From Candidatus Eiseniibacteriota bacterium (GTDB taxonomy: Bacteria > Eisenbacteria > RBG-16-71-46 > SZUA-252), in assembly GCA_031370645.1 (NCBI GenBank), contig JANMQV010000132.1, positions 1 through 11,575 of the forward strand: 11,575 nucleotides of DNA. Direction: 5' to 3'. Under the pieces are notes generated by a model. The model made no database searches. It was not told the origin of the DNA and was given only the letters and a program-made list of their open reading frames with translations. Shown here in pieces: positions 1 through 11,575 of the stretch (the stretch's first letter is position 1; every line of letters begins with the position of its first letter). The translations under genes and the position numbers were made by a program.

Positions 1-85
1 CGTCGATGGCTGTTCGGATATGATCGCGATGGGTTTCCATTTCCTCGATGACCCATGTCGTGTGTGGTCGCGTCATGTTGCTCAT
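1..85 (-). CDS. Possible 5' end of a hypothetical protein running off the window (MSNMTRPHTTWVIEEMETHRDHIRTAID...)
   Basis: ATG at 85 (alternative 76) preceded by purine-rich GGAAGGTGGAG; frame is open to the window edge. Too short to recognise. Confidence 0.3.
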   Translation of the reverse strand, partial: MSNMTRPHTTWVIEEMETHRDHIRTAID

Positions 86-357
86 GCTCCACCTTCCGGT
101 GCGGGCCCGAAACCCGCTCCCCATCCCCTTTTCGGCCGCCATTTATGAGCGCCGTGTGCCTTCTTCAGCAAGTACGACCAGGGCTAGAACCATGCCACCA
201 CGGCGGACGGTGCGGGAATCGCTCCAAGACGATGGGGCCAGCCCTGATCGGCGTCGGTGGGTTGAGTTCGAAGCGCTCATCGCGGGGCGAGCAGATCGGC
301 GGGAATGGAGAAAGTTGCGCTCGCCGCAGCAGAATATTCAAGTCGGAGAGGGGCACG

Positions 358-393
358 GGTGCCGGAGGAAGGGGGCGAATCCGCACGAGGCTT
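358..393 (-). repeat. Degenerate direct repeat of the tRNA-Leu 3' end (att-like)
   Basis: Plus strand 358-393 GGTGCCGGAGGAAGGGGGCGAATCCGCACGAGGCTT versus 705-740 GGTGCCGGAGGAGGGGGTCGAACCCTCACGAGGTTT: 31/36 identical, ungapped, same orientation. Confidence 0.8.
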
Positions 394-409
394 CCCTCCT
401 GGCGGAAGC

Positions 410-616
410 TCAGGCGCGATTTCTCGCCCTGAGCGCGAAGATGAGGCCGAAGAGAGCAGCTCCGCACGCTGCCCCACCTCCGGAGATCCCAACGACGTCG
501 ACCGTCCGCACGTTTTGCGAGAAGTGGAAGAGATTCTGGGAAAATCGAACCAGACTTCCCACTCCGATGAGGAAGAGCACAAGCAGGAGGACGGGATTGG
601 GTCTAAGGCGCTCCAT
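410..616 (-). CDS. Small (68 aa) hypothetical membrane protein with two hydrophobic segments
   Basis: ATG at 616 preceded by SD-like AAGAAAGGGAAC; MERLRPNPVLLLVLFLIGVGSLV...VVGISGGGAACGAALFGLIFALRARNRA. The longer track ORF (410..733) would overlap the tRNA, so the start was moved. Confidence 0.65.
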   Translation of the reverse strand: MERLRPNPVLLLVLFLIGVGSLVRFSQNLFHFSQNVRTVDVVGISGGGAACGAALFGLIFALRARNRA

Positions 617-703
617 AATCGTTCCCTTTCTTCGCGAGGGCGACGTCCACGAGCAGGTGGGCGCGCAGGTGCGCCCGAACCCCGGGAGCCGCTTGTAGCG
701 TGG

Positions 704-792
704 TGGTGCCGGAGGAGGGGGTCGAACCCTCACGAGGTTTAAGCCTCACAGGATTTTGAGTCCTGCGTGTCTGCCAGTTCCACCACTCCGGC
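704..792 (-). tRNA. tRNA-Leu (anticodon CAA), long variable arm, CCA encoded
   Basis: Reverse complement GCCGGAGTGGTGGAACTGGCAGACACGCAGGACTCAAAATCCTGTGAGGCTTAAACCTCGTGAGGGTTCGACCCCCTCCTCCGGCACCA: acceptor GCCGGAG/CTCCGGC, anticodon arm CAGGA-CTCAAAA-TCCTG, T arm GAGGG-TTCGACC-CCCTC. Confidence 0.98.
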
Positions 793-817
793 GGCGGGCT
801 AACTTATTGGAACGGCG

Positions 818-846
818 ACATTATCAGGGGGTGCGGGGGCGGTCAA
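818..846 (-). promoter_or_regulatory. Sigma70-type promoter of tRNA-Leu
   Basis: TTGACC-N17-TAATGT on the minus strand, ending 25 nt upstream of the mature tRNA 5' end. Confidence 0.65.
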
Positions 847-879
847 GGAACCCCCTCCGAGCCCGTGCCAAGATTCCAA

Positions 880-909
880 TTGACAATTCCACAACTAGTT
901 AGGTACTAT
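880..909 (+). promoter_or_regulatory. Sigma70-type promoter, divergent from the tRNA promoter
   Basis: TTGACA (880-885)-N18-TACTAT (904-909) in an AT-rich patch of a GC-rich sequence. Confidence 0.75.
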
Positions 910-945
910 CCCTCCAGCGTCGTCGAAGGCTGATTCCCCCCTGCC

Positions 946-973
946 GGAACTTTTTGCTCGTTTCCGAGTCTAA
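946..973 (+). promoter_or_regulatory. ECF sigma (RpoE/AlgU-type) promoter
   Basis: GGAACTT (946-952)-N16-TCTAA (969-973), matching the established sigmaE consensus and spacing. Confidence 0.7.
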
Positions 974-979
974 AGAGAC

Positions 980-1148
980 GCGCAATCGATGTGAAGTTCC
1001 CTGTCGTTCATGTGACCAGGGCGGTCTGAACCGGCGGTTCCGCCGGAGGGTTGCCTCAGCCCCGCAGGTCGTTCGAGCACGGTCTGTACGGGGAACTTCC
1101 AAATAAACGGGCGGCGAGTCCCTAGGGATTCGCCGCCCGATACATTTT
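980..1148 (+). ncRNA. Candidate structured non-coding RNA of unknown family (possible longer isoform from ~916)
   Basis: Two tandem promoters upstream and no credible ORF. Closing stem GAAGUUCCCUGU (993-1004)/ACGGGGAACUUC (1088-1099); inner helices GACC/GGUC, GCGG/CCGC, CUGA/UCAG; hairpin CCGGCGG-UU-CCGCCGG; terminal 14-bp hairpin. The single non-Watson-Crick pair in each long stem is G-U on the plus strand but A-C on the minus strand. Ends are approximate. Confidence 0.6.
1101..1148. terminator. Probably bidirectional intrinsic terminator
   Basis: CGGGCGGCGAGTCC-CTAG-GGATTCGCCGCCCG (1108-1139), followed by TTTATTT on the minus strand (end of the phosphatase operon) and ATACATTTT on the plus strand. 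Confidence 0.8.
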
Positions 1149-1207
1149 CCGCCTAAGCACGAATCTGCCCGCATCCCGCTCGAGCGGCGCCGAGCCCCAA
1201 TCGGCTC

Positions 1208-2971
1208 CTACGCCATCCCCTTCACCACCACGATCGTCATGTCGTCGTCCAGCGCCCCGTCGCGGTGCGCCTTCACCGCGTCCCAAATCCCGCGCAGGAT
1301 CACCGTCGCCGGCTCCGCCCGTTTGGCGCGGATCACATCGCGCAGGCGATCGTCTCCGAACAGGTCCCCCGTGGCATCCATCGCCTCGGTCACGCCGTCC
1401 GTGTAGAGCACGAGGACGTCGCCGGGTCGAATCTCCACGGCCCGCTCCTTGTACGTCACCGTTTCAAACGTCCCCAGCAGGGGCCCCGTGGCTTCAAGGT
1501 AATCGAACGTCGCCCCGCCCGCGCGGCAGAGAAACGCCGAGTTGTGTCCCGCGTTCACATAGGTGAAGCGGCGCCCCTCGATGTCCAACACGCCGTACAA
1601 CGCGGTCACGAACCGGTCCGGCTCGATGCTCTCCCACAACAAACGGTTCACCTTCCCGATGATCGTCCGAATGGCGTAGTTGTTCCGAATCTCCGCGATC
1701 AACGAAGCGCGGAAGGAAGCCATGATCAACGCGGCCGCGAGCCCCTTCCCCGAGACGTCTCCAACCACCACGCCGAGATGATTGTCCGCGATGCGCACGA
1801 AGTCGTAATAGTCGCCGCCCACCAAGTCCGAGGAGAAGTTCGCGCCGGCGATATCGAAGTTCCGAATCTCGGGATTCCGATCGGGCAGAAACGAACGCTG
1901 GATCCGCTGCCCGATCGTCACCTCTTCCTCGAGGCGCCGCATCTCCAGCACTTCCTCGTGGAGGCGCGTCCGCTCGATGGCTACGGCCGCTTGCGCGGCG
2001 AATGCCATCAGGAGTTCCATGTCCTCCTGCTCGTAGGCGTCCTGCTCGTCCGACTCGAGGTTGAAGGCGCCGATCACCTCGCTGCCGATTCGAATCGGAG
2101 CCACCATCTCGCTTCGCGTTTGGTCGCGCGCGTTCACGTAGCGCGTATCGGTCGCGACGTCGGGGACGATGGCGCCGCGGCCGGTCTTCGCGACCCAGCC
2201 GATCAGCCCCTTCCCAACCTTGACTCGCACCGCCTCGTCGCGATCGGCGTCGTAGCCCCGGAGCGCTTGGCGCTGGATCCACTGCGTCTTCTTGTCGACG
2301 AGGTAGATGCCCGCCGCGTCGTAGCGCACGACCTGGAAGACGAGGTCGAGAATCTGTTCGAGGAGGAGATTACTGTCAAGGCTCGCCGAGATCTTCGTGC
2401 CTAGTTCGAGGAGGAGTTGATTCTCCACCTTCTCTCGCATCGCCTCGGAGTAGACGCGTGAATTCCCCACCGCGATCGCCAATTGCTCGCCTAGTTCCGA
2501 GAGGAATGCCACGTCCTCGGCGGAGGGGACGTGATCCGCGCGATGCAACGTGACGACGCCGAGCGGCTCGCCGCCGCGGCGAAGCGGTAAGGACAGCACC
2601 CCGCCCAATTCCGCCAGGGGACGTCCACCCCACTCCTCCGCGAGATAGAGCGCTTCGGGGATCGTCGCGTCGTAACGGGCTTCCTCTTCAGCCACCGCTT
2701 GACCGGCAAGCCCCTGGCCCACCTGAAGCCGCGGACGGCGGCCCAACACAGGCGTATTTCCGAGCGTCCAGGGATAGAGCACTTCGGTCCGCGGATCGAT
2801 CACCCAGAGGGAGAGTTCATGGAACGCGCTGGCCGAAAGAAAGAAGTCGCGCGCCTTCCGCGCGAGCGCGTCGCGCTTGAGGAGCGCCAATTCCCGCGAC
2901 GCGCGCACAAGGAAGCGAAGCCGATCCACTTCCGTGCGGGCCGGCCCTGCGAGTGTGGTTCGGTCGGTCAT
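1208..2971 (-). CDS. GAF-GAF-PP2C (SpoIIE-family, RsbU-like) serine phosphatase, 587 aa
   Basis: PP2C/SpoIIE motifs VGGDYYDF, VVGDVSGKG, VNAGH, LYTDGVTEA, DDMTIVVV; two GAF-like segments (GQGLAGQAV...LPLRRGGEPLGVV; GKGLIGWVAKTG...TRSEMVAPI). Start set at ATG 2971, which forms an ATGA overlap with the upstream stop. Confidence 0.93.
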   Translation of the reverse strand: MTDRTTLAGPARTEVDRLRFLVRASRELALLKRDALARKARDFFLSASAFHELSLWVIDPRTEVLYPWTLGNTPVLGRRPRLQVGQGLAGQAVAEEEARYDATIPEALYLAEEWGGRPLAELGGVLSLPLRRGGEPLGVVTLHRADHVPSAEDVAFLSELGEQLAIAVGNSRVYSEAMREKVENQLLLELGTKISASLDSNLLLEQILDLVFQVVRYDAAGIYLVDKKTQWIQRQALRGYDADRDEAVRVKVGKGLIGWVAKTGRGAIVPDVATDTRYVNARDQTRSEMVAPIRIGSEVIGAFNLESDEQDAYEQEDMELLMAFAAQAAVAIERTRLHEEVLEMRRLEEEVTIGQRIQRSFLPDRNPEIRNFDIAGANFSSDLVGGDYYDFVRIADNHLGVVVGDVSGKGLAAALIMASFRASLIAEIRNNYAIRTIIGKVNRLLWESIEPDRFVTALYGVLDIEGRRFTYVNAGHNSAFLCRAGGATFDYLEATGPLLGTFETVTYKERAVEIRPGDVLVLYTDGVTEAMDATGDLFGDDRLRDVIRAKRAEPATVILRGIWDAVKAHRDGALDDDMTIVVVKGMA

Positions 2972-3684
2972 CGTGTCGATCGGGTCGTCCGGGTGGGGCG
3001 GCGCTTCGCCGCGCCGCGCACGGCGCTGCCGCCGGCGCAAAGTTCATCGAGATAGGCTCGGAGTTCCGCCGGCTTCAGATGATCCGCGGACCAGAGCGCG
3101 CGGAAGATCCGCTCCCCGCGCGCGGCGTAGCCGGGAATGTGGTCCAGCGTCCGGGCGTAGACGCGGCGCCGTTCGCCGCGCGTCATGGAGGGAAGCCCGC
3201 GACGGTGGAGCCGTCCATCGATCCAGACGTTCCAGAGTTCGTTGAAGGCCTCGCGATCGTCCTCCGGGCAAGACGAGAGATCGACGCCCGCCTCGTGGTC
3301 GTCTTTGAGATGGCTCAGTTCGTGGAGACACGCCTCGGCGAACGAGCGCGACGAGAACTGGCGCGTCGCAAGCGGCGGAAGCCCCGCGCGGCGTCCCCAG
3401 GTGCGCGCCCAGGCGCGGCGACGTTCCCGCGTGACGAAGTTCCCCACCGCGAATGAGAGGCGCGCAGCCCTATGGTCGTGCGTGTTCCACTCGATGTAGG
3501 CGTGGTCGTCCCGGTTCGCAAGATCGATCGCAACCTGGAGATCGTGAACCACGCCGGCCAAGCCGAGCTCGCGCACCGATTGCCGGAGGACCGCCTCGGC
3601 AGCTTCGCGAAGCGGGAATTCAGGAGGGTTCCATCGGATGCGAAGCGCGCCCTCCGCACCCGCCGTGGTGCGCATCGAGGCCAT
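2968..3684 (-). CDS. Hypothetical protein with HExxH motif (putative zincin-type metallopeptidase), 238 aa
   Basis: ACLHELSHLKD followed by EAFNELWNVWIDGRL; start overlaps the upstream stop (TAATG) and stop overlaps the downstream start (ATGA). Confidence 0.75.
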   Translation of the reverse strand: MASMRTTAGAEGALRIRWNPPEFPLREAAEAVLRQSVRELGLAGVVHDLQVAIDLANRDDHAYIEWNTHDHRAARLSFAVGNFVTRERRRAWARTWGRRAGLPPLATRQFSSRSFAEACLHELSHLKDDHEAGVDLSSCPEDDREAFNELWNVWIDGRLHRRGLPSMTRGERRRVYARTLDHIPGYAARGERIFRALWSADHLKPAELRAYLDELCAGGSAVRGAAKRRPTRTTRSTR

Positions 3685-4190
3685 TACTTGGTCACCGCGC
3701 GAACGAGGAAGACGTGACCCACGATTAGCACCGCGAAGAGAGCGGCCGGATGGATTCCGAACGGTGTACGTCGCTCTTTTGGCTTCGCAACGACCGACGC
3801 TACCGGAGGGCCGATTCCGACACCCGGTGCCTTGAATCCGAGAGTTTCAGCGGGAGCGCTTCCCGAGGGGAGCGATGAGCCCGCCCCGAATCGAACCGAG
3901 TCGGGAACCATCGGCGCCGGCTTGTCCTGAAGCCCTTCCGGCAGCGAGTCGGGCAGAACTTGGTTGTCCTGGTCGTCCTCGTCCTCGGTCCAGTTATCAT
4001 CGGAGTTGTTATCGGGGGGAGTCGGATCGATCGGCTCCTGCGACACGGCGGAGACCGACGCCGCAGCCGACGTCCCCGCGACTGCGGGAACGACACTGGC
4101 GCTCGGGATCGCGGCCAGGAAGACCGCGAATCCGAGCGCCAGCGCGAGCGAGCGGATGAGTCGCAGGCTAGAAGCGGAAGCCGAGGCCAA
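3684..4190 (-). CDS. Hypothetical exported or membrane protein: N-terminal signal/TM, acidic Pro-rich middle, C-terminal TM segment
   Basis: RLIRSLALALGFAVFLAAIPSA; DPTPPDNNSDDNWTEDEDDQD; GIHPAALFAVLIVGHVFLVRAVTK. Fills the gap between neighbours. Start uncertain (TTG 4190 or CTG 4166); the track's extension to 4565 overlaps the upstream gene. Confidence 0.65.
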   Translation of the reverse strand: MASASASSLRLIRSLALALGFAVFLAAIPSASVVPAVAGTSAAASVSAVSQEPIDPTPPDNNSDDNWTEDEDDQDNQVLPDSLPEGLQDKPAPMVPDSVRFGAGSSLPSGSAPAETLGFKAPGVGIGPPVASVVAKPKERRTPFGIHPAALFAVLIVGHVFLVRAVTK

Positions 4191-4725
4191 GCGCCCCCAG
4201 CCCGGTGATGCCGAACGTCCCTTCGACCTTCGGGGTGAATCGGTAGCCGACCTCGAAGCCCCACGACGGTCCGTAGACAAGATTGGCGCGACCGGTCCAC
4301 TTGGCGTCGAAGTTGTGCGAGATGGCGATGCCGAACTCGGGGCGAAGTCCGGCCCGGTTGGCGAAGGCTCCGAAGATTCCGGCGATGCTGGGGTCGTGAC
4401 GGTCCCCTTCGACGAACTGGTACATGTAGTGCCCGCCCATGACGAGGTCGTCGTTGAACGTGCCATCGCCGGGTCCGAAGTTGTCGAAGTAGAGGTTGTT
4501 GTCGTCGACTCCAAAATATCCCCCGACCGCGCTCCGCTCGGAGATCGCGAAATCCGCCTGGCCATACACTCCCTCGAACACGGCGAATCCTCCGCGGTTC
4601 ACGCCGGAGACGATATTCGCGTCGGGAATCGTGGCCCATGCGCGCGGGGCGGCGGCGAGCGCCAACGCCAGCGCAAGGCCGAGCATAGTCCATTCGAAAC
4701 GGGCTTTCCAGGTGCGCCGATCCAT
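4168..4725 (-). CDS. Exported protein, probable small outer-membrane beta-barrel, 185 aa
   Basis: Strong SD GGAGG before the ATG; signal peptide ending A-W-A; Gly/aromatic alternating strands (WGFEVGYRF, PEFGIAISHNF); C-terminal LGLGFRF resembling a BAM beta-signal. Confidence 0.8.
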   Translation of the reverse strand: MDRRTWKARFEWTMLGLALALALAAAPRAWATIPDANIVSGVNRGGFAVFEGVYGQADFAISERSAVGGYFGVDDNNLYFDNFGPGDGTFNDDLVMGGHYMYQFVEGDRHDPSIAGIFGAFANRAGLRPEFGIAISHNFDAKWTGRANLVYGPSWGFEVGYRFTPKVEGTFGITGLGALGLGFRF

Positions 4726-4827
4726 GCGTCATTCCTCCAGGTGTAATGCCGCGACCCCCGAGCGCCGATTGTAACCCGAACGGCGATCGGCGGGGAAATC
4801 CACGTTCTCGAGAACGGCGCGCGAGGA

Positions 4828-4866
4828 AATGAAAAACGCCTTCGCGACCGTAAAGCCACGAAGGCG
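4828..4866 (-). terminator. Intrinsic terminator after the 4890..5303 gene
   Basis: Minus strand CGCCTTCGTGGC-TTTACG-GTCGCGAAGGCG (12-bp stem with two G-U pairs) followed by TTTTTCATT. Confidence 0.75.
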
Positions 4867-4889
4867 CGTTTCGTTTTCGAAGGACGATG

Positions 4890-5303
4890 CTACGGGCGTG
4901 AGCGGAGCGCCTCGAACGCGTCGGCGTTCATCAATACGCCGTCACGGAATCGAATCGGCGTCGACAACTGGCCGTAATACCACGCCTCTTCCGAGTGGCC
5001 GATCGGCTGTGAGAGCACGCGCCCCGTCGGATATCCGAGCGTGTCGAAGACGCGACGCATGTCGCCGGGAATGTGATCGCGCCAGTAGGCGATGCGAAGC
5101 GCGTAGCGGAGGAGTTTCTCCTGGTGCCGCACCGACGCGGACTGCCACTCCTTCGTCGCGAGGACCTGCACCTTCCCTGCATCGACGTAGTAGATGAGGC
5201 TCGGCCCGATGATGTCCTTCGTCTGGGCGTGGGCGGTAGGAGTCGACGTGATCAGAACGGCCGTGGTGACCACGGCGAGGGCCAGGGCAAGGTGGCGGAG
5301 CAT
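4890..5303 (-). CDS. Secreted hypothetical protein, possible BamE/SmpA-like fold, 137 aa
   Basis: Sec signal peptide ending A-H-A; pattern V..TLGYP...EEAWYY...IRFRDGVL; SD-like GAGAGG upstream; own terminator. Confidence 0.75.
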   Translation of the reverse strand: MLRHLALALAVVTTAVLITSTPTAHAQTKDIIGPSLIYYVDAGKVQVLATKEWQSASVRHQEKLLRYALRIAYWRDHIPGDMRRVFDTLGYPTGRVLSQPIGHSEEAWYYGQLSTPIRFRDGVLMNADAFEALRSRP

Positions 5304-5339
5304 GGTGCGGGGCCTCTCTCATGTCGGGTGAATCGAGCC

Positions 5340-5381
5340 CCCGCCTCGCGCGGAGGCGGGCGCATGTACCCGTTAATTATA
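5340..5381 (-). promoter_or_regulatory. Perfect -10 box (TATAAT) followed by a GC-rich leader hairpin upstream of the secreted-protein gene
   Basis: TATAAT at 5381-5376 on the minus strand with no clear -35; inverted repeat CCCGCCTC (5340-5347)/GAGGCGGG (5353-5360) without a U tract. Confidence 0.45.
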
Positions 5382-5417
5382 CCTCAAGAGGGGGCTGGAG
5401 GAGCGGGTGAAAAACTT

Positions 5418-5777
5418 CTAGCGACGGTAGAGGATTCTGCCGCAATTCTCGCAGAATTCGTAGGTTGCGCCTTCGGAGTTTCGGCCGATGGAGTTGGTCG
5501 GAAGGCTGATGCGGCAACCGGAGCAGACTCGGCCGTTCACGGGGACGATCACGCGGAAGAAACGGCGGCTCATTCGTTCGTAGGTCTGGAGGAGCCGATC
5601 TTCGACTTGGCTCGCCAGGCGCTCCCGGGTTCGCTCGAGGTTCGAAATCCCCTCCACCGCGAAGCCGAGCTTCTCTTCCTGGGAGGACATCTCGGGATCC
5701 CGCATCTCGCGGAGCAGGCAGTCGACATCCTGCAACTGGATCAGGGTGTCAAGGGATTCGGCGGTCGTATCATTCAT
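5418..5777 (-). CDS. Short C4-type zinc-ribbon protein (zf-RING_7/DUF164, HP0958/CT398-like), 119 aa
   Basis: N-terminal LIQLQDVD helix, LLQTYERM, CSGCRISLP and CENCGRILY; 8-nt overlap with the upstream EIIA gene. Confidence 0.88.
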   Translation of the reverse strand: MNDTTAESLDTLIQLQDVDCLLREMRDPEMSSQEEKLGFAVEGISNLERTRERLASQVEDRLLQTYERMSRRFFRVIVPVNGRVCSGCRISLPTNSIGRNSEGATYEFCENCGRILYRR

Positions 5778-6267
5778 TGGCTGCCTCGATCAGGGTCCGC
5801 CGCACAGTTCCAAAGTCGGGGGCTTCCAGAATACGCTGACGCGTCTTCGCGAGTCGAACGGCGCGGACGATTTCCGCGACCAGGTTGAGATAGACGGGGT
5901 CTTTCTCCAGCGGCGGCGCCACGATGAGGAAGCAGAGGTTTGTCGGGATGCCGTCGGGAGAGCCGAAATCGATTCCCTTGCTTGAACGGGCGATCACCAT
6001 CGAGCGCTCGGTGATGAGGGTCGAGCGGGCGTGAGGCACCGCGATCCCCTTCCCGAGCCCTGTGCTGCCGAGCGCTTCCCGACGCCGCACCGCATCCAGA
6101 ACCCCTTCGGGGTGGCGCGTCACGTCGGCGGTCGCCAGGACCGCAACCATCTCCTCGAGAACGGACGATTTCCGCTTCGATCGGAGCTCGGAAATAAAAA
6201 GCGCCTTCCGGAGGTGCTGCCTGAGCAGCGGGATCTCAACAGTCGGCGAGAGCGTGGTGGGGCTCAT
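5770..6267 (-). CDS. Stand-alone PTS EIIA component (fructose/mannitol/Ntr family, PtsN-like), 165 aa
   Basis: RREALGSTGLGKGIAVPHARS with the phospho-acceptor His, and GIDFGSPDG. Start set at ATG 6267; the track's longer N-terminus overlaps the opposite-strand TPR gene. Confidence 0.92.
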   Translation of the reverse strand: MSPTTLSPTVEIPLLRQHLRKALFISELRSKRKSSVLEEMVAVLATADVTRHPEGVLDAVRRREALGSTGLGKGIAVPHARSTLITERSMVIARSSKGIDFGSPDGIPTNLCFLIVAPPLEKDPVYLNLVAEIVRAVRLAKTRQRILEAPDFGTVRRTLIEAANE

Positions 6268-6322
6268 TCCTTTGAAAGACCTGTGGGCGGGGGTTGACGG
6301 TTTGCCTCCTCCCCTAGCACGT

Positions 6323-6352
6323 ACGTTACAAGACGCAATCCCCGCATGGCAA
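6323..6352 (-). promoter_or_regulatory. Possible sigma70-type promoter for the EIIA/zinc-ribbon pair
   Basis: TTGCCA-N18-TAACGT on the minus strand, about 55 nt upstream of ATG 6267. Confidence 0.4.
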
Positions 6353-6478
6353 GAAGGTTCTCCGCCGGTGGCTCGTTGCGGCCCTCCGACGCGAACTGCC
6401 CGATGGCTGAGACCGCAAGTTGATGCCGCTAAACCCCTTGTAATGCCGGCGGATAAACCGCCCCTGAGCGACGCGAAG

Positions 6479-6494
6479 CGGCACGCACCTTGCG
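6479..6494 (+). promoter_or_regulatory. Sigma54 (-24/-12) promoter of the TPR gene
   Basis: CGGCACGCACCTTGCG: GG (6480-6481)-N10-GC (6492-6493) with GGCACG and TTGC; the predicted start near 6505 lies just before SD GGGAGGA (6508-6514). Confidence 0.7.
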
Positions 6495-6522
6495 ATGTGT
6501 TTGCCGTGGGAGGACTCTTGCC

Positions 6523-7029
6523 ATGGCCAGTCAGAGGGACCGCCGTCAGCGTCAAGTCGCCGTCGTGGGCGCGATGGGACACGATGAATTCATGACGGGT
6601 GTTCGCATGCTCTACGCCTGCCGCTATCAGGACGCCCTGGCGCACTTCCAGGAAGCGGTCGTCCTGGAGCCGCTCGCGAAGGGCTATCTGAGCTATCTCG
6701 GCCTCGCCACGGCGCACGCGCAGCGGAAGTTCTCCGACGCCGAACACCTCTGCCGGAGGGCCATCGAGGCGGAGTACCACCGTCCCGAACACTACTTCAA
6801 TCTCGGCGAAGTCTACGTCCTCGCGGGCCGGAAGTCGGACGCGATGAAGTCATTCAATCAGGCGCTCTCGTGGAATCCGAGTTACGACGCGGCCCACGAC
6901 GCGCTCCGAAAACTGGGCGTGCGGCGTCCGCCGGTCGTCCCGATCCTGCCGCGAAGCCACCCCCTGAACGTGTTCCTCGGAAAGACACTCCGCGGGAGCA
7001 AGAAGAGCACGGCGCGCGCCACCGCCTAG
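6523..7029 (+). CDS. Tetratricopeptide-repeat protein, 168 aa
   Basis: SD GGGAGGA 8 nt before ATG 6523; TPR patterns ALAHFQEAVVLEP, YLSYLGLA, AEHLCRRAIE, HYFNLGEVY, AMKSFNQALSWNP; basic C-terminal tail. Confidence 0.9.
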   Translation: MASQRDRRQRQVAVVGAMGHDEFMTGVRMLYACRYQDALAHFQEAVVLEPLAKGYLSYLGLATAHAQRKFSDAEHLCRRAIEAEYHRPEHYFNLGEVYVLAGRKSDAMKSFNQALSWNPSYDAAHDALRKLGVRRPPVVPILPRSHPLNVFLGKTLRGSKKSTARATA

Positions 7030-7048
7030 CGAAAGCCGGCGGGCGCGC
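7014..7048. terminator. Possible hairpin between the convergent TPR and permease genes
   Basis: GCGCGC-CA-CCGCC-TA-GC-GAAA-GC-C-GGCGG-GCGCGC; GNRA loop, no U tract. Confidence 0.3.
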
Positions 7049-7891
7049 TCAGTAGTTCGACTTCCAGTCGATCAGCCCCCTCGCCCGGGCCGTCTGTTCA
7101 CACCAGGCGAACCACCAATACCCCGCCACAACGGTCGCCGCGGTGCTCGCCGCGAGGATGAGCAGAAGCATTCCGTCCCCCGTGCCCATGAGAATTCGCG
7201 AATAGGGCTTTCCCGACAAAATGCGCCGCAGGAGTTCGAGCCAATAGGTGAACGGCAGCAGCAACGAGATCCGCTGCGCCCACGCCGGCAACACGTCGAG
7301 CGGAAAGACGGCGCCGCAGAGCAAATAGAAGACCCCGCCCAATCCCTCGTTCAAATTGATGCTGTGCCTCGCCACCACGAGTGAGATCCCCGCGAGCGCC
7401 ACACCCAGCCACGCCACGCCGATCAGTCCGACGAGCGTCACCGCCAGCAATTTCGCGATCGTGGCGACGTCGTGGCGGAGCGGCACGCCGAGCACGAGCG
7501 CTCCGAACACGAGCGCGAACGCCACGCCCAGCGAGGCGGTCGCGATTTTCGTGAGTCCCCTGCCCAGGAGGTAGTGGAGCAGTCGAATCGGCGCGACGTA
7601 GATGTACTTCATCGTCTCGTAGTCCTCGCGGTCCCGGAACACCGCCCAGGAAATGCCGATGAGGACTTCCGTCACGTAAAGGAAGAACGTGTTTCCGATG
7701 AAGAGCTGATGGAACGCGGCGGCCCCGACGGTGCCGCCCGAGACGATCCTCGCCATCAGGAAGAGGATGAGGGTCGTCGCGAGCGGCTTCGCGATGGCGA
7801 AGACGACGAAGAGGAACGGATCGGTCCAATTCGCCTCGACCTGCCAGCCGATCCACGCGCCAGCGCGCATCGTCTCCCACGTCCGCCTCAT
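7049..7891 (-). CDS. ABC-2-type transporter permease, 280 aa
   Basis: About six hydrophobic segments; DREDYETMKYIYVAP, CGAVFPLDVLPAW, LLPFTYWLELLRRIL. ATG 7891 lies 4 nt after the upstream stop. Confidence 0.92.
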   Translation of the reverse strand: MRRTWETMRAGAWIGWQVEANWTDPFLFVVFAIAKPLATTLILFLMARIVSGGTVGAAAFHQLFIGNTFFLYVTEVLIGISWAVFRDREDYETMKYIYVAPIRLLHYLLGRGLTKIATASLGVAFALVFGALVLGVPLRHDVATIAKLLAVTLVGLIGVAWLGVALAGISLVVARHSINLNEGLGGVFYLLCGAVFPLDVLPAWAQRISLLLPFTYWLELLRRILSGKPYSRILMGTGDGMLLLILAASTAATVVAGYWWFAWCEQTARARGLIDWKSNY

Positions 7892-7895
7892 GCGA

Positions 7896-8732
7896 TCACC
7901 CGCCCCGAATCGTGAGGCGCCCTTCCTTCTTCCCGAGGTTCTCCATGAAGAGGAGCGACCGGTGCGCGAGGAAGAGGTAGAGGAAGAGGAGTCCCGTTTG
8001 GATGGGGACGATCCAGACGACGGGGATGAATCCGTGCGCCGCCTCACCGTAAAGAATCTGGCGAATGCCGTCGAGTCCTAGCGTGATCGGGATGAACCCG
8101 GCCAGCGACGCCGCCACGGCTCCGAGCGCTCGCACCGGGAAGTAGAATCCGGAGAGGAGATAGACCGGCTCCTGGAAGAGCGTCGCGGTGTTCCACGCCT
8201 CCCGTCCCCACATGAGGAAGACGCTGCTGAGAATCATTCCGAGCCCGTAGAGCGAGCCGAGCGTCAGGACGAAGAGGCCGAGCGCACCCGGGACCCGCGC
8301 CCAGGGAAATGGGACGTGGAAGAGGAGGATTCCCGCGAGAAGGATGACGATCGCCCGCGTCGTCGTCGCGACCATGCCGCCGAACGCCATCCCGAGGAGA
8401 ATCGACATGCGCGAAACGGGCGTGATGAGGTAAAGCTGGAGTTGCCCCTGCTCCTTCTCCCAGAAGAACTGGCTCGCCATGCTCCAGAGCACGTTGTTCC
8501 AATAGGCGATCATGGCGCCGCCCAGAACCGCGAACCCTTCAAATGCCGGCGGCGCGCCGAGTCCCCGGTAGACGAGAACGAAGGTCGCCATCGAGAGGAT
8601 CGGGAAGACCGTCTCCCCGATCAGCCAGGAGCGTTCTCGGAAGGCGGCGAAGATTCGCACGCTCGCGCGGGCCGACACCGCGCCGAGATTCATCTGGAGG
8701 CGTTCGCCGAATGACTGCTCTTCGCGGCTCAC
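7896..8732 (-). CDS. ABC-2-type transporter permease, 278 aa
   Basis: WEKEQGQLQLYLITPVSR, LSGFYFPV, IPITLGLDGIRQIL; GTG start at 8732 forms a GTGA overlap with the ATPase stop. Confidence 0.92.
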   Translation of the reverse strand: MSREEQSFGERLQMNLGAVSARASVRIFAAFRERSWLIGETVFPILSMATFVLVYRGLGAPPAFEGFAVLGGAMIAYWNNVLWSMASQFFWEKEQGQLQLYLITPVSRMSILLGMAFGGMVATTTRAIVILLAGILLFHVPFPWARVPGALGLFVLTLGSLYGLGMILSSVFLMWGREAWNTATLFQEPVYLLSGFYFPVRALGAVAASLAGFIPITLGLDGIRQILYGEAAHGFIPVVWIVPIQTGLLFLYLFLAHRSLLFMENLGKKEGRLTIRGG

Positions 8733-9745
8733 GCGCGTTCCACCAGATCCGCGCCGTCGGCCTCCTCGAGGCCCCGGCCGACGAGGTGCACGAAGACGCT
8801 CTCGAGCGACGGCTCCTGCTTCGTGAGATTGAGGACGGCGACGCCCCGCTCCCGGAGCGTTCCGAAGACCTCTCCGATCACGTCGTCCGCCGCGAGGGTG
8901 AGCCGGATCTCCATGGCGCCCGTTGCGGGATGCGTGTGGTGGAGCGCGCTTCGAACCCCCCCGATGGCGGCGCTCCACCCGTCGGGTGGCGCCGATCCCA
9001 CGTGGAGCACGAACGCCGTATCCTCCGGGAGTGCTCGCTTGAGCGCGATCGGCGTGTCGAGCGCCAGGATCTTCCCGTGGTCGATGATCGCGACGCGTCC
9101 GCAGAGTTCGTCGGCTTCCACCATGTAGTGCGTCGTGAGGAGCACCGTTCGCTCGGGGCGCTCCCGCACCCACCGCGAGATGAAACTCCGGATGGAACGC
9201 GAAGCCTCCACGTCGAGCCCGAGCGTCGGCTCGTCGAGAAAGATGATTTCCGGGTCACTCATGAATCCACGCGCGAAGTTCACCTTCTGTTTCATCCCCG
9301 TCGAAAGCCCCGACATGCGCGTGTCGGCCTTGGGGCCCAGGCCGGTGATCTCCATAAGTTCCTCGGCGCGGGCCCTCGCCACCGGCCACGGCACCCCGTA
9401 GAAGCGCGCGAAGAGATGGAGCGTCTCCCGCACGGTGAGAATGCCGTAGCCGGAGGAATCGCCTCCGGAGACGAGATTGATGCGGTGCCGTACCGCGAGC
9501 GGGGCCGTCGCCACGTCGAAGCCGGCGACGAGCGCGCGCCCCGAGGTCGGGAGGAGGAGCGTCGTGAGGATCTTGATGAGGGTGCTCTTCCCGGCCCCGT
9601 TCGGACCGAGGAGCCCGAAGCATTCGCCCCGCTCGACGCGGAGGTCGACGCCGCGAAGCGCTTCGACCTCTCGCTCGCGGCGCGTGCGGAACCGGCGCGT
9701 GAGCGCGGTCGTCTCGAGGGCCGGGGCGGATGAAATCGACGTCAT
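8729..9745 (-). CDS. ABC transporter ATP-binding protein (DrrA-like exporter ATPase), 338 aa
   Basis: Walker A GPNGAGKST, signature LSTGMKQ, Walker B IIFLDEP, H-loop LTTHYM, C-terminal EPSLESVF. Confidence 0.97.
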   Translation of the reverse strand: MTSISSAPALETTALTRRFRTRREREVEALRGVDLRVERGECFGLLGPNGAGKSTLIKILTTLLLPTSGRALVAGFDVATAPLAVRHRINLVSGGDSSGYGILTVRETLHLFARFYGVPWPVARARAEELMEITGLGPKADTRMSGLSTGMKQKVNFARGFMSDPEIIFLDEPTLGLDVEASRSIRSFISRWVRERPERTVLLTTHYMVEADELCGRVAIIDHGKILALDTPIALKRALPEDTAFVLHVGSAPPDGWSAAIGGVRSALHHTHPATGAMEIRLTLAADDVIGEVFGTLRERGVAVLNLTKQEPSLESVFVHLVGRGLEEADGADLVERA

Positions 9746-11574
9746 TTGCCGAGCAATCTCCGAAGCGCGTCTCGGCTCTTCTTCAACGGGTCGTCGGTGG
9801 CGCTGCTGTCCTTCTTCGCGGCGCCGGAATCTGCCGGCGTCGCCGTCGCCGTCGAGTCGGTGGCGCTCCCCTTCGTCGGAGGTGTGAGCTTCTCGGTCAG
9901 CGATTTCGTGAGCGACTTGGTCAGGGCGTCCCTCAACTCCGCCCCTGCCGCGCCGAAGAGATTCCCCGCCTTCAATTGAACCTTCGGCGCGTCCGTCGTT
10001 CCGCCGATGCCGAGTTGGACCGGGAGTCGCCCGTCCGAATCGCGCGCGAGCCGCGCGAACTGCGCGAGGGCGCTATTCCCCTTCACGCGTTCCGGAGCGA
10101 GGCGAAGCAGGAGTCCGAGGTTCAGGGACTTGTCCATTCCGAGGGCGCCCGTCAGTTCGAATTTGTCGGAGCCGAGATCGCCGCGGACCTTGTCGAGGAG
10201 GAGTCTCCGTCCTTCGATCCGAAGCACGTGCGAGATCGTCTTGAACGCCATATCGGTTTGGCCGCCGAGCCCGAGGAGCCCGCGGATCTTCCGGATCGAT
10301 TCCGTCTCCGCGATCTTCCCCTGCTCGACGGTGCCGGTCAGATTTCCACGGAGTTGATCGCTCACCTCCGCTCCCGGAAGTCCCGGCCCCGTGAGGTCGA
10401 CATTGCCGCTGAGCGCGCCGGTGATACCGAGCTTGAACGGGAGGAACCCGCGCGCGAACTCCTCCACTGGCGCCTTCAGCACGTCGAGCTTCAACGCGTA
10501 GGACGGCTTCGCCAGGAGATCGCGCACCGTGAGGCCGCCCCCGATCATCCCCGTGCCCATGGCGCCGTGGATCGGCTCCACCGTGAGCGTCCCGCCTTGG
10601 AAGCGGACCGGCATCGTGACGTCCCTAAGGGTCATCGTGCCCTGCCGAAGTTCTCCGATCGAGACGTCCGCCGTGAACGACTGGAACGGGAGGGCCATCG
10701 GAGCGGTACCGGGCGCCGGAGACCCAGGCGCGTTACCGGCGCCCTTCGCCGGAACGGGGGGCGTCCACTCCTCCGCGATGAAGCGGTCGAGGCGTGCGAC
10801 GAACGCGCCCGTGCCGAGCGGCTTCCCCATCGTGACGACGCCCGTGACCTTCGCGGTCGTGGAGCCGACCGTCGCGTCGAGCGATTTAACCTCGACGCGC
10901 GCGGCGTCGCCGGCGAGTTGGAATTGAAGCCTTCGGATGGGAGGCTGGAGCCCGGGCGCCGTTCCGCTCAGGTCACGGCCGTTCACCGTCCATCGCACCT
11001 CGGGCGGCGTGGGGGCGCGCGTCACGAAGAGGGCGCGGACGCCGATCATGCCGCTCTTCCAGGTCGGCGTGTTCGGCGCGAGACCGTTCAGCCGCGCGGC
11101 CGGCGCGTCGAGCTCGAACGTCCCGTTCGATTCACCCCCCGGCACGGTGGAACCGTTCGCCTCGAGCCGAAGCGAGAGCCCGGAGCCGCCTCCGGAAGCC
11201 TTCGCGGCAAAGCGCCGATCGGGGGTGACGCTCCAATCCGCGGCCACCTGGTCGAGCGAGAACTTGTTGGGCCCAGACTCTACAAAGATCGGCTTCAGCG
11301 AAATCGCGCCGGTCTGAATCGGTGCCGCCGGAGTTCCCGCGATCTTGATCTGCCACGACGCCTTCGTCGACCACCTCGCGGGCGAAGCGGCGGCGAGCGC
11401 CCTGAATGCCGGGTCGCTCGAACGGATTTCTTGTGGGTCTCCCGCGACGGTGAGGTCGAAGCGAGCGGGTGACTTGCCCGCCGGCAGAATGATCGAGCCC
11501 GCCAACTCGCTCTTCAGCGGTCCTAACAGCACAATGCCGCGCGTCACGTCGAGGCGGGGAGCGGCTCCTCCAGA
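9742..11574 (-). CDS. AsmA-family (repeating beta-groove) protein, C-terminal part; 5' end lies outside the window
   Basis: Gly-rich alternating beta-strand pattern throughout; ITGALSGNVDLTG, LRGNLTGTVEQGKI, LPVQLGIGGTTDAPKVQL and a terminal helix DALRRLLGK typical of AsmA-like C-termini. The frame stays open from 11547 to the window edge. Confidence 0.82.
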   Translation of the reverse strand, partial: SGGAAPRLDVTRGIVLLGPLKSELAGSIILPAGKSPARFDLTVAGDPQEIRSSDPAFRALAAASPARWSTKASWQIKIAGTPAAPIQTGAISLKPIFVESGPNKFSLDQVAADWSVTPDRRFAAKASGGGSGLSLRLEANGSTVPGGESNGTFELDAPAARLNGLAPNTPTWKSGMIGVRALFVTRAPTPPEVRWTVNGRDLSGTAPGLQPPIRRLQFQLAGDAARVEVKSLDATVGSTTAKVTGVVTMGKPLGTGAFVARLDRFIAEEWTPPVPAKGAGNAPGSPAPGTAPMALPFQSFTADVSIGELRQGTMTLRDVTMPVRFQGGTLTVEPIHGAMGTGMIGGGLTVRDLLAKPSYALKLDVLKAPVEEFARGFLPFKLGITGALSGNVDLTGPGLPGAEVSDQLRGNLTGTVEQGKIAETESIRKIRGLLGLGGQTDMAFKTISHVLRIEGRRLLLDKVRGDLGSDKFELTGALGMDKSLNLGLLLRLAPERVKGNSALAQFARLARDSDGRLPVQLGIGGTTDAPKVQLKAGNLFGAAGAELRDALTKSLTKSLTEKLTPPTKGSATDSTATATPADSGAAKKDSSATDDPLKKSRDALRRLLGK

Positions 11575-11575
11575 G

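Follow-up and report, generated by a model that had tools for sequence, protein, structure and literature searches.

A candidate family of structured RNAs in the Eisenbacteria, with a stand-alone member behind tandem promoter motifs and likely relatives in the leaders of microcompartment operons

Among described systems, those closest to the locus reported here are the small RNAs (sRNAs) MicA, RybB, and MicL of the Enterobacteria and ErsA of Pseudomonas, stand-alone genes with a near-consensus GGAACTT-N16-TCTAA-type motif and an intrinsic terminator. The GlmY/GlmZ-type sRNAs have dual sigma70/sigma54 promoters, and EutX/Rli55 of the eut microcompartment system and SreA/SreB are riboswitch-containing or leader-derived RNAs that act in trans. 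Our subject is the plus strand between positions 880 and 1149 of an 11,575-nucleotide (nt) stretch of DNA, hereafter called the window (contig JANMQV010000132.1, positions 1 to 11,575, assembly GCA_031370645.1), from a member of the Eisenbacteria (Candidatus Eiseniibacteriota), an uncultured phylum of soils and sediments. This segment is very probably a self-contained gene for a structured noncoding RNA, type A of an Eisenbacteria-wide family. The family is new and of a known general kind, the bacterial small RNA behind an alternative-sigma promoter; the unusual feature of the type A RNA is a basal module that it has in common with cis-acting leaders.

The type A RNA resembles MicA, RybB, MicL, and ErsA in each of the features named above. 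It differs from them in that it carries a sigma70-type promoter in tandem upstream, matches none of them in sequence or structure, and conserves a folded three-way-junction core rather than a 5' seed, and in that Hfq was not found in its genome. Like GlmY/GlmZ, it combines a housekeeping promoter with an alternative-sigma promoter, has relatives that use sigma54, and could plausibly act as a protein decoy; unlike GlmY/GlmZ, with which it has no homology, its promoters stand in tandem about 63 nt apart without overlap, and its alternative sigma would be of the extracytoplasmic function (ECF) type. The new family has in common with EutX/Rli55 and SreA/SreB a structured, sensor-like domain, microcompartment operons in its relatives, and, in the window, a terminated stand-alone RNA. 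In contrast to those systems, no ANTAR-type hairpins, B12 aptamer, or ligand was detected with Rfam, and the family of genomes to which the window belongs is without microcompartment genes. Finally, a terminal helix of conserved sequence formed from the 5' and 3' ends, inner modules that vary by subtype, and single-copy occurrence recall the Y RNA YrlA and 6S/Ms1 RNAs, but no Ro/TROVE protein was found, a canonical 6S RNA lies elsewhere in the genome, and the Ms1 model scores 17.8 bits against a cutoff of 162. The locus is a well-delimited, apparently expressed RNA gene with a covariation-backed fold in an uncultured phylum, and it consists of the following elements.

880-909, plus strand: P1, sigma70-type promoter (TTGACA at 880-885, 18-nt spacer, TACTAT at 904-909), with a predicted start at about 916.
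916-990, plus strand: 5' leader, present in the long (P1) isoform only and poorly conserved except for the P2 boxes.
946-973, plus strand: P2, ECF-sigma-type motif and putative promoter (GGAACTT at 946-952, 15 nt, GTCTAA at 968-973), with a predicted start at about 979-981.
991-1100, plus strand: structured core of about 110 nt, with a closing helix of 991-1003 (GTGAAGTTCCCTG) and 1089-1100 (CGGGGAACTTCC).
1101-1107, plus strand: single-stranded linker AAATAAA, A/U-rich in all orthologues and variable in sequence.
1108-1149, plus strand: intrinsic terminator, a 14-bp stem-loop (1108-1139) followed by ATACATTTTCC.

What characterizes an intrinsically terminated sRNA gene is found here: a promoter of its own, no open reading frame (ORF), a hairpin that is rich in G+C and leads into a U tract, and conservation of the whole as a unit. 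P1 agrees with the sigma70 consensus at 10 of 12 positions, and promoter-like sites of this kind number 2, against 0.2 expected from shuffles. Inside the closing helix lie an internal loop, two further helices (a short YGT/ACG one and a G-U-rich one), and a three-way junction that carries two hairpins; the 14 pairs of the terminator hairpin are followed by ATACATTTTC. Mechanical translation yields ORFs of 50 amino acids (aa) at 954-1106 on the plus strand and 91 aa at 899-1174 on the minus strand. A coding gene was nevertheless rejected, since the longest ORF in 20 orthologues ranges from 23 to 91 aa with shifting frames and sequences, and no conserved ORF was found among them on either strand.

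Conservation follows the family to which the window's genome belongs. The DNA from 870 to 1150 matches 21 of 24 other family genomes, including all 7 of the same genus, at 69 to 95% identity; outside the family, 1 of 16 genomes has a match, a weak one. In the window's own genome the region occurs once, and R1, a covariance model of the 113-nt core, finds one core copy each in 29 of 31 family genomes. An alignment of 20 sequences from four genera shows conserved blocks at AATTGAC(A/T)-N18-TAnnAT, at GGAACTT-N15-GTCTAA, at both closing-helix strands, and at the inner helices and terminator. In genome G016, the complete P1-P2-core-terminator unit lies amid different neighbors, without the phosphatase gene that adjoins it in the window, and it therefore behaves as an autonomous module. 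Because the feature is conserved, single-copy, and covarying, it stands beyond chance.

The segment 985-1150 folds at -85.2 kcal/mol on the plus strand (z score, -5.86), compared with -73.4 kcal/mol (z score, -4.18) on the minus strand. RNAalifold predicted 46 pairs, of which 11 show compensatory changes; pairs of the terminator stem are among them (pair 157/166, for example, is UA in 8 sequences, GC in 6, and CG in 4). For the 35 pairs of the core, we aligned 31 distinct type A sequences to the covariance model, a procedure that biases the alignment somewhat towards the model's structure; 97.7% of cells were paired, compared with 35 to 53% when the partners were slid by 1 to 3 columns. Compensatory change on both sides was seen in 12 of the 35 pairs, and none of 500 shuffles attained the observed values. 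G-U pairs make up approximately 183 of 1,071 core cells; read from the minus strand they would be mismatched, which identifies the plus strand as the functional one. No variation at all is seen in eight of the closing-helix pairs, so that sequence, and not only pairing, is apparently constrained there. A core closed by an invariant 12- to 13-bp helix around a three-way junction is thus well supported, and it stays intact in the full-length fold.

No catalogued RNA family accounts for the locus. In a search of Rfam 15 (4,227 models) at the gathering thresholds, the tRNA alone was matched and the RNA locus gave no match; in a permissive scan, the best scores were 17.8 to 19.5 bits against cutoffs of 55 to 162, mostly on the terminator hairpin, BjrC80 being at the upper end (19.5 against 80) and Ms1 at the lower. 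6S RNA and signal recognition particle (SRP) RNA were rejected as identities, as the genome has its own copies of both above the cutoff, at C126:8931-9111 (88.8 bits) and C204:5984-6083 (65.8 bits), respectively. The Y RNA idea was dropped because the TROVE protein (PF05731) gave 0 matches in the 95%-complete genome. Ten relatives of types B and C (described below) likewise had no Rfam match, and in the parts of the literature that a full-text search reached, nothing was found on small RNAs or RNA regulators of Eisenbacteria or on microcompartment leaders of this kind.

The RNA gene is apparently expressed. Six metatranscriptome (RNA-library) runs contain part of the stretch, and four of these (X15 to X18), each from a different study, were compared over positions 600-1500; X19 and X20, which have small shares, are uninformative either way. 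A 219-nt contig in run X15 corresponds to 926-1144 with 2 differences, and a 191-nt contig in X16, from a different study, corresponds to 931-1121. Outside the RNA region, neither run yielded a long close-matching contig; the flanks have short, mostly loose-ended pieces over the tRNA and, in X16, also over the phosphatase gene at 1219-1254 and 1377-1407. This coverage fits a discrete transcript from P1 to the terminator, and the contig starts at 926 and 931 show that RNA includes the part of the leader that precedes P2. Several points speak against so simple a picture. In X17 and X18, contigs of relatives extend over the P1 region as well (864-973 and 871-1071), and in X17 one such contig continues beyond the terminator into the phosphatase 3' end. 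Contigs carry neither strand nor true ends, the parts of the stretch that they leave uncovered are uninformative, and DNA carry-over or antisense transcripts may be their source.

A preliminary description of this DNA, made from the letters alone, agrees with these results in its outline. The two promoter boxes, the ORF-free stretch, the 14-bp hairpin, and the convergent next gene that it named are all present in the sequence; the closing stem with nested helices that it had folded by eye is borne out by the fold z score and covariation, and its choice of the plus strand from G-U pairs by the count of such pairs. Its predicted transcripts of about 165 and 230 nt fit the anatomy, as does the contig over 926-1144, and the Rfam search that it called for assigned the RNA to no family, in keeping with its statement that no hallmark of SRP RNA, tmRNA, RNase P RNA, or a tRNA was visible. 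The tandem sigma70- and sigmaE-type motifs that it reported proved to be conserved with fixed spacing, as follows.

Both motifs occur in 20 of 20 aligned orthologues. The P1 -35 box reads TTGAC(A/T) in all 20, and across 36 distinct type A loci it is TTGACA in 31 and TTGACT in 5; the spacer is 18 nt in 35 of these loci and 19 nt in one, with 33 distinct sequences, and the -10 box is TATAAT in 22. P2 is invariant in the 20 orthologues and ungapped between its boxes, and in the 36 loci its spacer is always 15 nt, with 30 different sequences. The 36-locus set was selected by the P2 motif, and for P2 it is therefore the alignment, with 20 of 20, that gives an unbiased count. The outer distances vary, from 31 to 38 nt between P1 and P2 and, in 35 of 36 loci, from 15 to 19 nt between P2 and the core. 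Two invariant boxes at a fixed spacing around a variable spacer constitute a promoter signature, and basal transcription from P1 is supported. Independent support for P2 as a promoter comes from stand-alone relatives in another family (type C, below), in which (G)GATCC-N16-CGT(C/T)T(A/T) occurs in 6 of 6 loci, the spacing again constant and the spacer sequences variable. The P2 boxes equal GGAACTT-N16-TCTAA, which we take to be the RpoE/AlgU-type consensus, and the strict motif occurs once per genome, always at the RNA locus, in 36 of 41 family genomes. The genome contains 16 sigma70-family genes, of which 11 are ECF sized, and all 11 pass the ECF superfamily model TIGR02937. Judged from these sequence comparisons, P2 is probably a real ECF-type promoter. 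P1 and P2 could serve as reference promoters for sigma70 and ECF recognition in the Eisenbacteria.

A number of observations pull the other way. The strict P2 motif is unique in the window's genome, where 42 sites have two or fewer mismatches and none has exactly one. A reversed-pattern control gives 0 to 3 matches per genome, about as many as the P2 motif itself; occurrence alone therefore does not exceed chance, and the information lies in the fixed position only. None of the 16 sigma genes was found to have the motif upstream (three of the ECF genes are located at the ends of contigs), and the most RpoE-like ECF gene has a conserved upstream motif of its own, GGAAC(C/T)-N16-18-G(G/T)GTA, with a -10 box unlike that of P2. 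No ECF gene attains an equivalog cutoff, the best RpoE score being 144 bits against 236. A P2 regulon was considered and rejected: the 41 two-mismatch sites fall mostly in long ORFs (HAMP-like and cold-shock-like by eye). Four extra P2-like matches across the family have N16 spacing, and two of them resemble one HAMP-type coding sequence. The RpoE-like gene itself (G000:C131:127767-128411; loci L178-L207) is kept in 38 of 40 family genomes and is followed by a zinc-finger (HxxxCxxC) anti-sigma gene. Its upstream motif finishes a few bases short of the start codon; it is probably an autoregulated promoter, and the mRNA may be leaderless.

The strongest competitor of a promoter at P2 is that the GGAACTT and GTCTAA boxes work as RNA within the P1 transcript, either with GGAACUU and the closing-helix 3' strand in competition for GAAGUUCC or with GUCUAAAG serving as a single-stranded seed. 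We consider this possible, though doubtful. The heptamer GGAACTT is both the P2 -35 box (946-952) and part of the closing-helix 3' strand (1092-1098), both copies are complementary to 996-1002, and none of the three segments varies within the family. RNAalifold found the type A leader to have no conserved structure and predicted a single pairing there, that of the invariant GGAACTTT with GAAGTTCC, which the weak Ms1 alignment also uses. The RNA contigs include 928-978, two type B loci that are without a GGAAC box have GTCTAAAG directly 5' of the core, and neither a sigma factor nor a regulon was found for the motif. Against this, the exact 15-nt spacing with 30 spacer sequences and variable outer distances is what a promoter would leave, and the type C box pair, similarly spaced and with the same -10 box, has a different -35 box, so that the match to a helix strand is not general. 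Moreover, the full-length fold leaves the core intact, and the alternative pairing shows no covariation. A promoter thus remains our reading of P2.

Although the preliminary description called the RNA an orphan, it has relatives across the phylum. Weak R1 matches in other families have in common the pattern GTTCCCTG..YGT...ACGGT..CGGGGAAC, which is the basal helix with its internal loop. A search for this pattern found it in 71 of 185,579 species genomes, where about one chance match is expected, and 57 of the records are labelled Eisenbacteria or Eiseniibacteriota. Nine records bear the labels of other phyla (Omnitrophota, Hyphomicrobiales, Limnocylindrales, Udaeobacter, Saccharimonadaceae, Acidobacteriota, Bacteroidota, and Oscillospiraceae; for example, L096, L104, L121, L144, L151, L152, and L160). 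The cores of at least two of them, L152 and L160, are identical to those of L008 and L012, respectively, from genomes placed in the window's family, and the submitters' labels look unreliable; L150, with an Oscillospiraceae label, is a probable chance match within coding sequence.

Type B comprises 36 loci (including L094, L102, L122, and L133), from Eisenbacteria families other than that of the window, with the invariant inner segment GGGCTGATCCCCCTATCGCGAGCGAAGGAGTC. Approximately 95 to 110 nt upstream lies a sigma54-type promoter, (C/T)GGCAC-N5-TTGC, and the leader of about 300 nt consists of a variable 5' part, AACCGAATAC, the core with its inner segment, and a long GGGCCC...GGGCCC hairpin. 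In 22 of the 36 loci, a microcompartment shell gene begins at most 300 nt downstream, and in one larger type B locus the domains that Pfam confirmed downstream are EutN, BMC, and aldehyde dehydrogenase. An ATG after the hairpin was rejected as a start codon, there being no conserved ORF start. From its sequence and position, the type B leader is a candidate for a new cis-regulatory RNA of microcompartment operons.

Stand-alone RNAs are represented by type C and by two single variants, which have terminators of their own and ECF-like or sigma54 promoters. The type C loci are L154, L097, L143, L125, L114, and L118; four of the six have a GGAACCGTCAAT-like box about 45 nt further upstream, in four the next gene is conserved and its product starts with M..R....EAFLEAAH, and L118 has two tandem copies of the RNA. 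One type C genome also contains a sigma54 microcompartment leader (L210; G122:C3:6500-8000) that keeps TTCGTG..CTGATCCC..AAGGAGT..CACGGT without the outer GTTCCCTG/CGGGGAAC helix, so the outer helix and the inner motif look like separable modules.

Homology between the RNA types is likely on sequence grounds, and three lines of evidence have to be set against it. Type B scores weakly with R1 (26.3 bits; E value, 0.009 per genome), the link between types A and B depends on about 24 common bases, and the search pattern demanded those very bases, so that their invariance across types is partly built in. At whole-genome scale, R1 found no match in four of five type B genomes and a weak one at the known locus of the fifth (18.7 bits; E value, 0.86), which marks R1 as specific to type A. 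BMC genes (PF00936) are present in 0 of 31 genomes of the window's family, compared with 100 of 119 other sampled genomes of the phylum; the unpublished genome G048 is counted in these tallies (f15). The locus is linked to about 70 related elements, among them conserved leaders of sigma54-dependent microcompartment operons, and offers an example of a regulatory RNA module that operon leaders have in common with genes that stand alone. With it, the catalogue gains a candidate RNA family, and the testable question arises of the binding partner of the shared basal module.

In the mechanism that we propose, transcription from P1 (start at about 916) gives a transcript of about 230 nt that ends at the intrinsic terminator, a part that is well supported, and P2 (start at about 980) would give one of about 168 nt without the leader, placing the RNA in a stress response on top of basal expression. 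The acting part of the RNA would be the folded core rather than a free seed, and the basal helix with its internal loop would dock or sense a protein or small ligand. In the window's family, where the microcompartment genes would have been lost, the RNA would persist as a stand-alone trans-acting regulator or decoy. Recognition of the core as a folded object by a protein or ligand is the mode of action that we favor, tentatively and at somewhat less than even chances, because invariance is concentrated in the basal helix, internal loop, and junction, because the sole free 5' tail of the short isoform is unconserved, and because the basal module encloses differing inner domains, those of operon leaders included. 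Taken as a whole, the combination of an RNA gene, two starts, and recognition of the core is the explanation that we hold to be reasonably probable. More speculatively, and at perhaps one chance in a few, the basal helix and loop (GUUCCCUG..YGU / ACGGU..CGGGGAAC) could be a new, Eisenbacteria-specific portable module that senses or docks one conserved protein or metabolite, in cis as the switch of sigma54-dependent microcompartment operons and in trans within RNAs that stand alone under ECF sigma factors or sigma54. On that view, the RNA of the window would descend from a leader, would have persisted as a regulator after the microcompartments were lost, and would have been rewired to a stress sigma; the module would define a new class of riboswitch or, alternatively, a new regulatory system of RNA and protein.

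The preliminary description had instead inferred an envelope-stress-responsive RNA sitting among envelope genes; on this model, a sigmaE-like factor would drive the RNA, which, like MicA, RybB, or MicL, would pair with and repress mRNAs for outer membrane and other envelope proteins. Part of that idea is sound: P2 is invariant, with fixed spacing and the presumed RpoE/AlgU-type boxes, the RNA stands alone with a terminator after an A/U-rich linker, and there are 11 ECF-sized sigma genes, so that ECF control is plausible, even though none of these genes reaches the RpoE equivalog cutoff and no copy of the P2 motif was found upstream of them. The repression mechanism is a different matter. Hfq (PF17209) gave 0 matches in this genome, which is 95.4% complete, a result short of proof of absence; no Rfam small RNA matches in sequence or structure; the 5' tail of the short isoform (979-990) is unconserved, conservation lying in helices and junctions; and no regulon with the P2 promoter was found. 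The neighbors that Pfam could name are a phosphatase, a phosphotransferase system (PTS) EIIA-like protein, and an ABC-2 transporter, with the other ORFs tested giving no Pfam match, so that the envelope neighborhood falls away, and among the relatives of the RNA are leaders of sigma54 microcompartment operons. An envelope-stress sRNA of this type is, in our judgment, unlikely.

Riboswitch-controlled antisense RNAs are known, and less likely still is a cis-acting sensor of that sort, in which the core, riboswitch-like or under the control of a protein, would govern read-through of the terminator into an antisense RNA over the phosphatase gene. It would explain why relatives of the core lie between a sigma54 promoter and a microcompartment operon with a large hairpin next, why the phosphatase gene is convergent after the RNA in 19 of 20 loci, and why the contig of one relative spans core, terminator, and phosphatase 3' end. 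However, that contig is strandless, the intact unit has other neighbors in G016, the 14-bp terminator stem is long and stable, and by eye no conserved antiterminator pairing between core and terminator was seen in the alignments. A structured domain ahead of a set of genes on the same strand, which is what defines a riboswitch or leader, is found in type B only; in the window, no plus-strand gene follows.

It is highly improbable that there is no RNA gene and that the conserved block is DNA-level regulation of the tRNA-Leu or phosphatase genes with a shared terminator: the terminator could serve the phosphatase mRNA, a sigma70-like TTCACA-N17-TAGACT lies on the minus strand at 995-967, and in one genus only 11 nt separate the P1 -35 box from the tRNA start, but compensatory changes and strand-specific G-U pairs indicate RNA, conservation is lacking for the minus-strand site, G016 keeps the unit while having neither neighbor beside it, and the X15 and X16 RNA contigs are confined to the unit. 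The minus-strand site, possibly a promoter for the tRNA, was rejected on the same ground of conservation; many genomes carry GCGTCTAA there (TAGACG on the minus strand) together with 3 extra spacer bases. Read on the minus strand, the hairpin 1108-1139 is followed by TTTATTTGG, and because of this it may be a bidirectional terminator that also ends the convergent phosphatase mRNA.

The RNA gene is flanked in the window by two genes on the minus strand.

704-792, minus strand: tRNA-Leu(CAA), the divergent neighbor, upstream in 17 of 19 related loci.
1208-3040, minus strand: GAF-GAF-SpoIIE (PP2C) phosphatase gene (Pfam), the neighbor that is downstream and convergent in 19 of 20 loci.

Further along the window, on the minus strand at 5773-6792, lies the gene for the PTS EIIA-like protein, a product of 340 aa of which only the C-terminal 140 residues match PTS EIIA-2 (PtsN-like); its N-terminal 190 residues have no Pfam match, and the same holds for several long ORFs nearby. 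In the one genus in which the 5' end of tRNA-Leu lies about 11 nt from the P1 -35 box (L009:233-340), no convincing tRNA promoter was found at that place. In the window itself, TTGACC-N17-TAATGT on the minus strand at 848-820 is, by eye, a candidate promoter for the tRNA.

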